NCBI GenBank assembly: GCA_038998335.1
Contig: JAVZHQ010000001.1
Coordinates: 96,001-160,000 of the forward strand
DNA from: Candidatus Aenigmatarchaeota archaeon
GTDB lineage: Archaea > Aenigmatarchaeota > Aenigmatarchaeia > CG10238-14 > SCSR01
DNA length: 64,000 nt
Reading direction: 5' to 3'
A program made the position numbers. Below, piece after piece: positions 24,001 through 27,000 of the stretch. How positions within the stretch are numbered: position 1 is the stretch's first letter; each line of letters opens with the position of its first letter.

Positions 24001-27000
24001 CACAAAAAACTTTTCATTTTACTCAGATAAGTGGACCATGCCAAAGCTTTCATTAAAAGGATTAAGGTGTTGGTTGAGAGCTTTTTTCGACTGTGAAGCA
24101 TGGGTTAATGTTCAGAAAGGTAAAAGTAGAGTAATAGGATTAGAATCTGTTAACAAAAATGGCCTGGAACAAATTAGAAATTCTTTGCTTAAATTTGGGA
24201 TTAAGGTATCTAATGTAAAAAAAAGGAAGAATAGGAATATTTGGTATATTTACATTTGTGGTAAGGAAAATCTTCTAAAATTCAAAGAAAATATTGGATT
24301 TTTACACCCAAATAAAAACAAAAAACTCTTAGAAGCTATTAATTCATATATAAATTACGAATGGTTGATACCAAGTGAAAGAGAAGAATTTATCAAATTT
24401 GTGAATGATAAAGGGAAGTTAAGAAATGATACAAAAGAAGTTAGATTCTTTTCAATCATCAAAGATAATTTAATAAGATTAAAAGAAGAGTTAATAAAGT
24501 ATGGTATTGATGCAAGGATGTATGGTCCCTGGAAAAATAATAGGGGAAGAATTTATTATTGTTTATCTTTTAAGCAAAAAGAATTAATTAAATTAAGGAG
24601 GTGAGAAAGATAAGGCTTAAAGAAAGGTTAAGAAAAATTGGCCCTTGTCTATGGGAATTACCAAGGGAAACAAAGCCGGGAATGAAAGTACCAGCATGGC
24701 TTTTCTTGTCAGAAAAGCTTTTAAGTCAAGTAGAAGAGGGAGCGATAGAGCAGGCAGCCAATGTAGCTTTCTTACCAGGAATTTACAAGCATAGTATAGC
24801 ACTCCCTGATATGCATTTCGGCTATAGCTTATAAAGCGGCTAAGGATTTCCTATCGGGGGGGTTGCAGCTTTAGATTATAAAGAAGGCGGCTTAAGTCCA
24901 GGAGGTATAGGCTTTGATATCAATTGTGGCGTAAGACTTTTGCGTACAAACCTAACATTAGAGCAAGTAAAACCAAAACTTAAGGAATTGCTAGAATCAA
25001 TTTTCCATAACGTTCCTTCTGGTGTTGGCGAAGTTGGAAAAATTAAGCTAAGCTTTTCTGAGCTAGATGAAGTTTTAGTCAATGGAGCAAGATGGGCCGT
25101 TGAAAAAGGTTACGGAACCGAAAAGGATTTGGAGCACTTGGAAGAGCAGGGTTGCATGAAAGGTGCAAACCCAGAAAAAGTTTCTAACGAAGCAAAAAAG
25201 AGAGGAGCTCCTCAGCTTGGTACTCTAGGAGCAGGAAATCATTTTCTTGAAATTCAAATTGTGAATAAAATATTTTTACCAGAAGTTGCGAAAGTTTTTG
25301 GAATAGAAAAGGAAAATCAGATTTGCGTGATGATCCATACCGGAAGTCGTGGATTTGGTCATCAAGTTTGTACTGATTATTTAAGAATTTTGGAATCTAG
25401 GTTTAGAGATGAGCTAAGAAAATTACCTGACCGCGAGCTAGTTTATGCTCCTGCTGGAACTCAAGAATGTGAAGATTATTTTTCTGCAATGGTTTGTGCT
25501 GCAAACTATGCTTGGACTAATAGGCAAATGATTGCTCATTGGGTAAGGGAAAGTTTTGTAAAAGTTTTAGGAATGAAATTGGAAGATATAGGCTTGGAAA
25601 CAGTTTATGATGTGGCTCATAACATAGGGAAAATAGAAGAGCATGAAATAGACGGAAAAAAAGTTAAGGTTTATGTTCATAGAAAAGGTGCTACAAGAGC
25701 ATTTCCTCCTGGGCATCCAGAAATCCCAAGAGATCATCAAAAAGTAGGGCAATGCGTACTTATTCCAGCTAGCATGGCTACCCCTAGCTTCGTTTTAGTT
25801 GGAGCAGAAACCGCAAAAGAAACATTTTACTCTACTGCCCATGGCTCCGGGCGTGTAGAGTCCAGAACAAAAGCACTTAAGCAGATTAGAGGCGAAGAAG
25901 TCTTAAGACAATTGCAACAAAAAGGTATACTAGCTAAGGCCGCCAGCATGAAAGTTCTCGCTGAAGAGAGGCCAGAAGCTTATAAGCTATCGACAGAAGT
26001 TGTAAAAGCAACAGAAGAAGCAGGCATAAGTAAGCGTGTAGTAGAATTGTGGCCTTTAGCTGTGATGAAGGGTTAAATTACCTAAAAGTTTTGTCAACCC
26101 CCTTGTTCAATTTTTCAGAATGAAATTCACACTCAAAACAGACCCATTCACCTAAAATTTTAGTTAAGCTTTTATTCCCGCAGTTTGGACATTTTCTCAT
26201 ATTAATTTAAATACTCTTGAAAAAGATTAAGTTAAAGGTGAGAAAATGCTCTCTCAAATACCTTTTGAACTTGAGAAAATAAAGAAAGAAGACTTGGAAA
26301 AAGAAATAGCAAGAGTTGGGATGATAGCAGAGCTAGATGCTATAAATTTATACGAGCAACTAGCAGCTGTTTGTGAAGATCAAAAAATGAAGAAAGTCTT
26401 GCTGGATATAGCAAAAGAAGAGAAAACTCATCTCGGCGAGTTTCAAGCCTTGCTTTTAGAAAAAGATGAAGAGCAACAAGAAGAATTGAAAAAAGGAAAA
26501 GAGGAAGTTGAAGAGTTAAGCTAAATGTCAAGAATAACTTTTGCTTTCCAAACTTTATTTTTTTTAATTTTTAGCTGGTGATAGGTACAAGCTTTAACGT
26601 GCGTTCTAGTTTCATGCTTATTCTTATCTATGGTTTCGCCTTTGCAAATAGCTTCTAGCTTAAATTTTTTCTCATTAACTTTTACCGAAAATTCAGAAAA
26701 AGCTAAGTTTTCCGAATCAACAAAAACTAGCAAATAATTTAGCCAGTTAAACATTAAAGATTCTAAGTCTGAACCTTCGACCTCAACTTTTCTTTCAATT
26801 TTTGTTTCTATTTGCTTAGTGTTAACCATTACTTCAAACATTGCTAAGGCTGCATTTTCAAACAACTCGTTCAAATCTTTACCATAAGCTTCAAAGGCTA
26901 TGTCTGCTGTTGTTATGTCCAAAAACTTAAACTTCATACTTTAAAATTGGTTTTTAAGCTAAAAAATTAAATATTAATACTTTTTAGGCTTATTGGTAAT

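Follow-up and report, generated by a model that had tools for sequence, protein, structure and literature searches.

The gene of the tRNA-splicing ligase RtcB in the Candidatus Aenigmatarchaeota genome studied here (G000) is interrupted by 18 nt, and the best explanation, which we consider very probable, is that this insert is an archaeal bulge-helix-bulge (BHB) mini-intron in the rtcB message that would be cut by the tRNA-splicing endonuclease EndA and joined by RtcB, so that the ligase would depend on itself. The gene lies at 24601-26076 on the forward strand of the window (the whole 64,000-nt stretch of DNA analysed), starts with GTG and is read as two separate ORFs, one at 24601-24834 (77 aa), the other at 24940-26076 (378 aa). 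Between the two ORFs the frame is open apart from two TAA codons, both within 24826-24843 on the same strand, where ORF reading, an excision scan and a PDB alignment place the insert; the initial annotation had described such an 18-nt interruption with two in-frame stops, and it is confirmed. When the TAA codons are read as X, the resulting 491-residue RtcB matches the Pfam family RtcB (PF01139) with 547 bits over profile positions 1-426. RtcB also aligns end to end with the solved Pyrococcus horikoshii RtcB (611 bits), and in this alignment the six insert codons appear as an insertion between G-Y and G-F-P-I-G-G. The motif D-x-H-x-G-Y-G-F-P-I-G-G is restored by a single excision, starting at 24826 with a length of 18, as had been claimed, and the statement that G000 holds one copy of rtcB also stands, in a bin that is 90% complete. 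Removal would leave exon 1 at 24601-24825 (forward strand, 75 codons, last residues ...H-F-G-Y) and exon 2 at 24844-26076 (forward strand, from G-F-P-I-G-G to ...V-M-K-G and a TAA stop); the spliced message would encode 485 residues, and the unspliced message stops after 77 codons. The two called ORFs might instead be taken as 77-aa and 378-aa polypeptides that assemble, like the products of the split genes of Nanoarchaeum. However, the second ORF, with its sole possible start at 24940, would miss the stretch from G-F-P-I-G-G through G-F-D-I-N-C, which is conserved in all uninterrupted homologues, and where relatives have frame-shifting inserts the junction offers no start codon, so that we regard a split at the protein level as extremely improbable.

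The mini-intron reading makes a definite prediction of structure, and all parts of the predicted fold lie on the forward strand. Its central helix of 4 bp pairs an exonic 5' strand in the Gly-Tyr codons (24820-24823) with an intronic 3' strand (24838-24841), and all four positions are paired, two as G-C and two as G-U. On either side of this helix are the 5' three-base bulge A-T-A (24824-24826, predicted cut 24825/24826) and the 3' three-base bulge A-A-G (24842-24844, predicted cut 24843/24844), and the hairpin at 24827-24837 consists of a 4-bp inner stem (24827-24830 with 24834-24837) and a 3-nt loop (24831-24833). Cutting after the second base of each bulge gives an excision of exactly 18 nt, which is a DNA-based prediction. 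This geometry was read from the sequence and is also present in the MFE fold, so that the fold proposed earlier, a 4-bp helix with two 3-nt bulges, a 4-bp inner stem and an in-frame join, is borne out. The outer helix of G000 has 2-3 bp in the MFE fold; by strict count outer helices have 0-2 bp across 20 loci of the order and are absent in class B, and such a short outer helix fits the relaxed HBh' form. The inner helix is 3-10 bp long in 19 of these 20 loci and 1 bp in the 14-nt intron of G095. The fold energy of the 57-nt region is no better than that of shuffles (z = 0.70). Because energy is uninformative for a motif this short, the case rests on geometry and comparison. BHB-like geometry arises by chance in ∼3 of 1000 combinations of start and length in G000 (85,463 motifs in ∼2.95 × 10^7), and with fixed bulge letters in ∼1 of 10,000 (16,933 in ∼1.4 × 10^8).

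The comparison covered the Aenigmatarchaeota-like order, its phylum and MAGs titled Woesearchaeota, among which 26 genomes were dissected; gains and losses of the rtcB introns were argued from insertion positions and genus labels. The 26 genomes carry rtcB inserts of 14-36 nt in the same 12-codon motif, at offsets of 9, 16, 18 and 22 nt from the Asp codon, and in each of them the best BHB geometry coincides with the cut that restores the motif. Where several cuts are possible, the cut with the best geometry yields the residue of intron-less relatives, and class B then reads D-G-H-S; at the second site of G074 it yields G-G-I-G, again as in intron-less relatives. Six further rtcB introns, 13-31 nt long, lie in or just before G-F-D-I-N-C-G, with the central helix fully paired in five and paired at three of four positions in one. 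In total the inserts take seven cut positions in rtcB, in two DPANN groups of phylum rank, which would mean repeated invasion of the gene if the comparative signal is right. In L148, which stands outside the dissected set, the first intron is an insert of ∼27-30 nt with two stops. The 5' bulge letters are A-T-A in 19 of 20 order loci and A-C-A in the remaining one. Class A loci have all four positions of the central helix paired in seven of eight cases; class B loci mostly pair three of four, with one locus at two and one at four.

Covariation follows the proposed pairing in both classes. In class B, 88.9% of cells are paired compared with 43-60% when the alignment is slid, there are four compensatory pairs, and none of 500 shuffles reaches the score. 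The corresponding values for class A are 96.3% paired compared with 11-56% slid, two compensatory pairs, and three of 500 shuffles reaching the score; here the inner stem covaries, and G022 shows a compensatory change in the central helix. The identical 18 nt had been reported from two other genomes, which proved to be G032 and G092, and their flanks differ from those of G000 (76-94% identity). G000 is a metagenome bin, and the insert might on that ground be an assembly or sequencing artefact, but the identity of the 18 nt in genomes with differing flanks and the presence of related inserts in at least 26 genomes leave this hardly any probability. The same-genus genome G090 was named as insert-free, correctly, and G093 is insert-free likewise. 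Earlier counts of 9 interrupted loci in 30 and 11 in 13 were not reproduced as written; our recount finds at least 20 intron-bearing genomes among the order genomes with an rtcB match (106 of 118).

Insert lengths and stop codons also bear on whether the ribosome deals with the insert, by stop read-through, by a reassigned TAA or by translational hopping across it. In G000 the insert length is divisible by three, and rtcB contains a 5-nt direct repeat, G-G-C-T-A, whose copies start 18 nt apart, both of which would suit such handling. Nevertheless, the insert length is not a multiple of three in 15 of the 26 genomes, and the inserts carry TAA, TAG and TGA. The conserved end of rtcB and its homologues is ...K-G, where the stop of G000 is TAA; a ribosome that hopped between the GGC codons would come down ahead of a TAA; and six additional residues would be placed inside an invariant motif that is uninterrupted in 71 of 80 loci. 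Handling by the ribosome is accordingly very improbable.

The possibility that the interrupted copies of rtcB, that of G000 among them, are pseudogenes, with the inserts as decay or as scars of mobile DNA, draws on the two in-frame stops, the many frame-shifting inserts and the nature of the genomes as bins, that of G000 being 90% complete. After excision of the BHB-predicted pieces, however, all 15 complete rtcB loci are full length, ending in ...K-G, and contain no further defect (13 directly and two once a second intron is removed). The dN/dS ratio is 0.116 for the rtcB pair G000-G032 and 0.025 for G000-G080, both members of each pair being intron-bearing, which supports purifying selection on intron-bearing alleles. 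Moreover, the inserts are confined to two motifs, always with BHB geometry and covariation, and rtcB is a single-copy gene in a genome where ∼20 tRNA genes are predicted to have introns. We therefore consider a pseudogene very unlikely. A tRNA-type BHB intron in the rtcB message, as the initial annotation had it, is thus supported by frame-breaking lengths, several positions, covariation, intact ORFs and purifying selection, and we regard this part of the reading, a predicted mini-intron in the message, as strongly supported.

Candidate mini-introns of the same kind occur in other protein genes of G000. An FBPase_3 gene (FBP aldolase/phosphatase) contains a BHB mini-intron of 23 nt, alba one of 31 nt and rnhB one of 20 nt, and removal restores a conserved motif in each case. 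A further candidate of 13 nt at C1:513427 has a fully paired helix (4/4), and its ORFs have no Pfam family. A genome-wide scan with a loose motif produced thousands of chance ORF mergers. A relaxed scan of G000, which covered lengths of at least 23 nt, gave 42 candidates, among which only those in the FBPase gene and alba were convincing. One candidate, C1:659069, was rejected; its excision removes real aIF1A-like coding sequence.

The genes that such splicing would need are present in G000. EndA products carry 2',3'-cyclic-phosphate and 5'-OH ends, and the known archaeal tRNA exon ligase is RtcB with Archease. The gene of Archease, the described cofactor of RtcB (PMC4604427), lies at 26521-26937 on the reverse strand, convergent with rtcB (Pfam Archease, 157.8 bits). 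G000 has one copy of endA (C1:649574-649852); EndA of 188 aa (L092:1548-2114, minus strand) has an N-terminal and a catalytic domain and looks like the one-subunit type. The one-subunit enzyme is described as strict for the canonical BHB, and loop-bearing one-subunit forms are reported for DPANN with many disrupted tRNAs (PMC5829648). An EndA that looks like the strict type, an outer helix of 2-3 bp in G000 and none in class B, the mostly incomplete pairing of class B central helices and a fold energy no better than shuffles are points that count against an intron. The likeness of the insert to the tRNA introns of G000 refers to a hand check on two tRNA genes; a brute-force derivation of their BHB pattern, in which each candidate was cut out and ARAGORN rerun, let through far too many excisions and was given up. 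With intron mode off, ARAGORN detected no tRNA, either in the window or in six loci.

On the mini-intron reading, the rtcB pre-mRNA would fold locally, its Gly-Tyr codons pairing with the 3' end of the intron to form the 4-bp helix, the two bulges and the hairpin, and in each bulge EndA would cut between the second and third bases. Joining the exons would then take a ligase that accepts a 2',3'-cyclic phosphate and a 5'-OH, which in G000 could hardly be other than RtcB with Archease. Since only the joined message encodes the 485-residue RtcB, its synthesis would need RtcB inherited from the mother cell, and the loop would be passed on through the cytoplasm. From the presence of endA, the single-copy rtcB and the other ligase-like genes, we infer that RtcB probably has to join its own message; the regulatory feedback proposed in the initial annotation would be a possible addition to this. 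It could also be that the intron is real and excised by EndA but that another ligase joins the exons, without self-dependence of RtcB. G000 has a borderline match to the RNA ligase family PF09414 (27.5 bits, the cut-off being 27), a gene of the 2_5_RNA_ligase2 family (64.9 bits) and an RtcA gene; the match to an ATP-dependent RNA ligase, the 2'-5' ligase-type gene and RtcA could weaken self-dependence. ATP-dependent RNA ligases require a 3'-OH and a 5'-phosphate, and would hence need healing enzymes to act on the ends left by EndA. A codon joined through a 2'-5' linkage would probably not be translated, and the genes of RtcB and Archease, the known pair for joining tRNA exons in archaea, are both at the locus. 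We therefore think another ligase unlikely, if less so than the other alternatives. A ligase that requires itself is a fragile design, and this was counted against self-dependence.

Messenger RNAs cut by the tRNA-splicing machinery have precedents in archaea. The cbf5 pre-mRNA intron was reportedly the subject of work by Watanabe in 2002 and Yoshinari in 2006, and its presence in Crenarchaeota is described by Yokobori (2009, PMC2738675). Like the rtcB introns, it is a BHB intron in an archaeal gene for an RNA-processing protein, with gains and losses between related organisms. The tRNA-splicing endonuclease removes it, and its splicing has been demonstrated, whereas that of rtcB is predicted from DNA. 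The rtcB introns differ in that they occur in a DPANN-type phylum, are 13-36 nt long, take seven cut positions in one gene, interrupt the pathway's own ligase, are accompanied by introns in further genes and are linked with a free-standing homing-endonuclease gene. The second precedent is the mRNA of HVO_1309 in Haloferax volcanii, a target of the splicing endonuclease (Schwarz 2020, PMC7714728; PMC10485636); it also has a BHB motif and is an EndA substrate, but the organism and the gene are different. A review gives cbf5 and HVO_1309 as the two known archaeal EndA mRNA targets, names only these and deems more to be likely (PMC10485636). The earlier proposal that this would be the first archaeal mRNA intron in a gene of the splicing machinery fits the literature searched, in which we found no earlier report of an rtcB mRNA intron or of a DPANN mRNA intron. 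In the XBP1/HAC1 splicing of eukaryotes the cutter is IRE1, which acts at two stem-loops under stress control. For rtcB the cutter would be EndA at a BHB and the target would be the ligase's own message. RtcB is involved in the unconventional splicing of XBP1/HAC1 mRNA (PMC8718801, PMC12530127), and the two systems share a very short intron, the lack of a spliceosome, joining by RtcB and a change of the encoded product, the rtcB side being predicted.

The rtcB locus of G000 also contains a free-standing LAGLIDADG homing-endonuclease-like ORF of 279 aa at 23765-24604 on the forward strand (Pfam LAGLIDADG_3, 84 bits, in two stretches). Its stop overlaps the GTG start of rtcB, and the ORF ends 222 nt upstream of the intron. 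Like the second intron sites in rtcB of relatives and the introns in other protein genes of G000, this ORF had been missed in the initial annotation. It is absent from the intron-less same-genus genomes G090 and G093, in which rtcB and the gene before it are 85-100 nt apart. In 371 genomes this endonuclease family has nine intact or near-intact members, each of them 197-254 nt upstream of an rtcB motif that is interrupted; a tenth member comes from a distant MAG (L115). No uninterrupted rtcB locus has a family member upstream in the same orientation, and the intron appears to travel with the neighbouring homing-endonuclease gene. Of the intron-bearing rtcB loci, at least 11 lack an upstream endonuclease gene. 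In G000, five of seven free-standing LAGLIDADG ORFs abut a BHB intron; distances from endonuclease gene to intron are 52-254 nt. The endonuclease gene linked to FBPase is accompanied by an intron in two of three cases, G125 having an intact gene and no intron. For the alba-linked endonuclease there is no relative at E <= 1e-25 in the 371 genomes, and neither a LAGLIDADG-HTH fusion ORF in L090 nor a weak LAGLIDADG match in L093 has a neighbouring intron. As regards co-conversion or transfer around the site, the rtcB of G000 is 91-94% identical to that of G032, from another genus, compared with 82% for same-genus G090; the gene upstream of rtcB is 76% identical to that of G032 and 94% to that of G090, and the contig of G032 ends inside rtcB.

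How this linkage might have arisen is suggested by collaborative homing. A LAGLIDADG gene would have settled immediately upstream of a host gene. Its presumed target would be a highly conserved motif near the beginning of the host gene, in the first few hundred bases, and this is where the intron would sit. Alleles of rtcB without an intron would be cut by the enzyme at the conserved motif, the intron would protect its allele from cutting, and endonuclease gene and intron would spread together by gene conversion, at no cost to the host while the tRNA-splicing enzymes remove the intron. Later decay of the endonuclease gene would leave orphan mini-introns, as may be seen in rtcB, rnhB, alba and the FBP aldolase/phosphatase gene. 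We infer, with about even odds, a selfish module of two parts, in which the intron confers immunity and the upstream LAGLIDADG gene is the other half. The joint presence or absence of a free-standing endonuclease and an ORF-less intron is what we see at rtcB, with exceptions. The intron-bearing rtcB loci that lack the gene, the FBPase-linked gene of G125 that lacks an intron and the absence of relatives of the alba-linked endonuclease count against homing. Some archaeal rRNA BHB introns carry a LAGLIDADG endonuclease gene inside the intron. At rtcB the linked gene is outside and upstream, and the intron is too small for an ORF; BHB intron and LAGLIDADG homing endonuclease are common to both. 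Such an endonuclease is described at an archaeal rDNA target site (PMC2602781). In phages, a free-standing endonuclease cuts intron-less alleles at the insertion site and mobilises an endonuclease-less group I intron (PMC2790892), which resembles rtcB in the ORF-less intron adjoining an endonuclease gene, the conserved motif and the patchy distribution among close relatives, but the rtcB intron would be a protein-spliced BHB and not a ribozyme, the host is archaeal, the enzyme is of LAGLIDADG type and its cleavage is presumed. Relatives also have inteins in RtcB, after G-Y-G-F (G101, G062, G113, G068) and before the Cys of N-C-G (L126, L141). These are selfish insertions in the same conserved motifs as the mini-introns, but they are in-frame and removed by protein splicing; two stops and no intein domains are seen in the 18-nt insert.

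Taken further, the comparison would point to an undescribed class of mobile elements in Aenigmatarchaeota-like and other DPANN archaea, composed of an endonuclease gene and a 13-36-nt BHB mini-intron, with self-dependence of rtcB as a result; we see the chances of this as evenly balanced. The link with homing endonucleases would offer a possible mechanism for the gain of BHB introns, a matter that also concerns tRNA introns, and introns of 13-14 nt are near the smallest insert that BHB geometry allows. If the comparative signal is right, four protein genes would be intron-bearing in one 1-Mb genome. Gene callers would then systematically break up or shorten essential genes of these lineages, with effects on inferences of completeness and metabolism for DPANN bins. 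And if the reading of rtcB is true, the gene would depend on its own product, which is rare, and would be the prokaryotic parallel to XBP1 splicing by RtcB.

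The rtcB gene of the window (24601-26076, + strand) was called as two separate ORFs (77 and 378 aa), and the frame between them is open apart from two TAA codons, both of which lie within the 18 nt at 24826-24843. With the stops written as X, the product scores 547 bits against the Pfam RtcB profile, which is covered as a whole, and 611 bits against the solved RtcB of Pyrococcus horikoshii in an end-to-end alignment, where the six codons of the insert appear as extra residues separating G-Y from G-F-P-I-G-G. The ORFs and the Pfam and PDB alignments confirm the initial annotation of a gene cut by an 18-nt insert with two in-frame stops. 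Its statement that removing exactly these 18 nt mends the motif also holds: among all excisions of 10-59 nt tried, the one starting at 24826 with a length of 18 was the only one that restored D-x-H-x-G-Y-G-F-P-I-G-G. The region can be drawn as a bulge-helix-bulge (BHB) structure, in which a central helix of two G-C and two G-U pairs (24820-23 with 24838-41) is flanked by two 3-nt bulges (24824-26 and 24842-44), with a 4-bp inner hairpin (24827-30 with 24834-37) and an outer helix of 2-3 pairs only. In archaeal BHB motifs each bulge is cut between its second and third base, and cuts placed by this rule give the identical 18-nt excision. The fold energy of the region is not unusual (z = 0.70), and because such geometry recurs by chance in this genome (G000) at ∼3 per 1000 (start, length) combinations, one isolated case is suggestive only.

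An rtcB match is present in 106 of 118 genomes of the order, and many of the matches break at profile positions 22-29. We dissected 20 broken loci of the order. The insert follows the G-Y codons, as in G000, in eight (class A; 16, 17, 18, 18, 18, 20, 26 and 29 nt) and D-G-H in nine (class B; 30-36 nt), it stands one base past G-Y-G in two (19 and 20 nt), and in one it lies two bases upstream of the G000 site (14 nt). Four loci from a phylum-wide endonuclease search and two named MAGs outside the order, one of them titled Woesearchaeota, bring the first-motif inserts to 26. Since the lengths of 15 of these are not multiples of three, those 15 cannot be protein insertions. A BHB arrangement with motif-restoring cuts is present for every one of the 26; where several such cuts are possible, the geometrically best one gives the residue that intron-less relatives of the clade have, D-G-H-S. 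All but one of the 20 order loci have A-T-A as the 5′ bulge. Moreover, the pairing covaries: in class B 88.9% of cells are paired versus 43-60% in slid controls, four pairs have changed on both sides and the covariation score was reached by none of 500 shuffles, and in class A 96.3% are paired versus 11-56%, with two compensatory pairs and a score reached by 3 of 500 shuffles. In the relative G022, the exonic Gly-Tyr codons have changed synonymously, and the intronic strand has changed to match.

Inserts of 13-31 nt also stand in or just before the second motif, G-F-D-I-N-C-G, in six genomes or loci (G022, G081, G074, G069, G056 and the Woesearchaeota-titled L148), with the central helix paired 4/4 in five and 3/4 in one; with the four first-motif positions, rtcB has seven cut positions within ∼100 nt. 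Relatives carry rtcB inteins after G-Y-G-F (L055-L058, from G101, G062, G113 and G068) and before the Cys of N-C-G (L126 and L141), and two of the three intein sites are thus the motifs used by the mini-introns. Up to three intein sites occur, the third near profile position 186, in open frames of 840-1472 aa. The presence of the intron is patchy within genera: in g1 it is found in G000 and G092 and is absent from G090 and G093, in g2 it is found in G032 and absent from three others, g12 has one class A, one class B and one locus without, g16 has three with and four without, and g24 two with and three without. Across 80 rtcB loci of archaea and bacteria, the first motif is unbroken in 71, with introns in seven and inteins in two.

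With the predicted introns removed, each of the 15 complete loci yields an ORF (475-513 aa) ending at the conserved ...K-G (13 directly and two after a second intron was taken out), and dN/dS is 0.116 for the intron-bearing pair G000-G032 (220 codons), 0.025 for the intron-bearing pair G000-G080 (416 codons) and 0.107 for G000 versus the intron-less G090. The pseudogene reading is excluded by these full-length ORFs and the low dN/dS (0.025-0.116). Read-through or hopping is excluded as well, because the insert lengths shift the frame and the stop codons are mixed, and a separate second polypeptide starting at 24940 would be missing both conserved motifs. Inserts, covariation and intact ORFs in relatives hence strongly support the intron reading of the initial annotation, and on this comparison the 18-nt insert is very probably a BHB intron.

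When G000 was scanned for BHB geometry and merged reading frames in combination, the 16,933 motifs yielded 12 candidates. Four of these are convincing, namely rtcB (24826-24843, 18 nt, junction G-Y / G-F-P) and three further genes. In the class V FBP aldolase/phosphatase gene (FBPase), a 23-nt insert (C1:46651-46673 = L091:1352-1374, +) follows codon 14 at the junction K-A-D-I / G-S, with a 4/4 helix and a 6-bp inner stem; the ORF downstream matches FBPase_3 profile positions 57-361, and the identical site is occupied in the same-genus G089 by a 21-nt intron with a compensatory helix change. The alba insert (C1:675450-675480 = L088 ∼2951-2981, -; 31 nt) has a 4/4 helix and a 10-bp inner stem, and its removal restores V-G / R-K, the sequence of the intron-less G090, G093 and G043; no insert was found in the other 11 loci compared. 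In rnhB (RNase HII), 20 nt (C1:435534-435553 = L094 ∼1535-1554, -) separate G-I-D-E from A-G-R-G, and the ORF downstream matches RNase_HII profile positions 6-199. Seven of 12 rnhB loci of relatives have a 16-20-nt insert at this site (the hairpins of five were judged by eye), two seem to be broken a few codons later, and three are uninterrupted. A 13-nt BHB-like insert at G000:C1:513427 (+; L095 ∼928-940; helix 4/4, bulges A-T-A and A-A-T) was also seen; taking it out would fuse a short ORF and a 72-aa ORF that belongs to no known family.

A free-standing LAGLIDADG ORF (23765-24604) overlaps the rtcB start with its stop. G090 and G093 of the same genus have neither the ORF nor the intron, and their preceding gene lies 85-100 nt from rtcB. 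A protein search of 371 phylum genomes gave 13 members of this family with at least 49% identity. Nine are intact or near-intact and precede the rtcB motif by 197-254 nt; this motif is interrupted beside all nine, at 9, 16, 18 or 22 nt from its Asp codon; a decayed member in G096 (eight stops) precedes an uninterrupted rtcB, two decayed partial copies have no rtcB motif within 1500 nt, and one member is at a contig end. The endonuclease gene of G081 (L207, G081:C1:31273-32115; 77% identical to that of G000), one of these nine, has two in-frame stops, a sign either of decay or of an interruption of its own. The distant MAG L115, whose rtcB has a 32-nt intron, has a tenth intact member (48% identity) 25 nt ahead of that gene. 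No same-strand upstream LAGLIDADG match was found at an uninterrupted rtcB among loci L003-L032 or among 71 of L096-L175, two sets that overlap partly. Many intron-bearing rtcB loci have no upstream endonuclease gene, which we read as decay of the endonuclease once the intron was fixed. Convergent LAGLIDADG ORFs downstream of rtcB were noted in G075 and G030 (L026, L027).

Five of the seven free-standing LAGLIDADG ORFs of G000 abut (52-222 nt) or overlap a BHB intron, with a mutual identity of only 25-29%; their neighbours are rtcB, FBPase, alba, tRNA-Cys and a tRNA-Phe-like gene, and none lies near rnhB. The FBPase-linked ORF (L091:333-1280, 315 aa) has three close family members, all directly 5′ of FBPase, with the intron in two (G089 has both homologous ORF and intron) and absent in G125; among 30 FBPase loci of the order, the intron and the upstream ORF are confined to G000. 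Remoter members (39-43%; L197, L199, L193 and L200, from G032, G029, G075 and G090) are convergent, ∼15 nt past the FBPase 3′ end. The alba-linked ORF (L088:3033-3830, -, 265 aa) lies 52 nt upstream of the insert and has no relatives in the 371 genomes at E ≤ 1e-25. The tRNA-Cys gene with a 31-nt intron (L089:1042-1146 = G000:C1:371541-371645, +) starts ∼17 nt past the stop of an ORF of ∼206-217 aa. A 268-aa ORF (L092:2906-3712, -) runs into the 5′ part of a tRNA-Phe(GAA)-like gene (G000:C1:650826-650931 = L092:2826-2931, -), which has two short inserts near 9/10 and at 37/38 as judged by eye, was missed by ARAGORN and weakly matches the Rfam tmRNA model (tRNA clan); endA, the tRNA-splicing endonuclease gene, is 0.7 kb downstream. 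LAGLIDADG domains, in the window at 36487-36975 (+), also lie within very long ORFs; the one in the window has 1009 aa, those elsewhere have 1630, 1646 and 2046 aa, and as many as three domain pairs occur. The genome looks rich in inteins. In a 400-aa ORF (L090:2952-4154, -; G000:C1:545951-547153), a LAGLIDADG domain is joined with an HTH domain of the ArsR type; this protein may be a domesticated endonuclease serving as a regulator.

The G000 rtcB shares 91-94% identity with its counterpart in G032, a genome of another genus with the identical intron, versus 82% with that of the same-genus G090, whereas the gene upstream shows the opposite trend (76% versus 94%). In collaborative homing as described for phage, an ORF-less intron is mobilised by a free-standing endonuclease encoded close by, which cleaves intron-less alleles at the site of intron insertion (PMC2790892). 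As far as genes and alleles are compared, rtcB of G000 is alike in having a free-standing endonuclease ORF next to an ORF-less intron, and the pattern appears to match collaborative homing. The archaeal mRNA cases named in a 2023 review, which anticipates further ones, are cbf5 and HVO_1309 (PMC10485636), and one-subunit EndAs with an extra loop are described in DPANN having many disrupted tRNA genes (PMC5829648). In full-text literature outside subscription journals, we found nothing published on introns in rtcB, on BHB introns in DPANN mRNAs or on a free-standing endonuclease paired with a BHB intron.

The G000 genome (1.0 Mb, 9 contigs, 33% G+C), whose nearest named rtcB relatives are titled Candidatus Aenigmatarchaeota (86-93% protein identity), has one rtcB, one endA (188 aa, N-terminal and catalytic domains) and ∼20 tRNA genes predicted to have introns. 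The gene of the RtcB cofactor Archease adjoins rtcB, and a small EncFtn-like/rubrerythrin-like ORF lies between them (26246-26524, +, 92 aa). In the archaeal tRNA pathway EndA cuts and RtcB joins. Other ligase-like genes of G000 are a borderline ATP-ligase match, a 2′-5′ ligase-type gene and RtcA; a bypass by these is conceivable but not likely. If EndA cuts the rtcB message and RtcB joins the exons, new RtcB would require existing RtcB: it would be produced only where RtcB is already present, and would be passed to daughter cells by inheritance.
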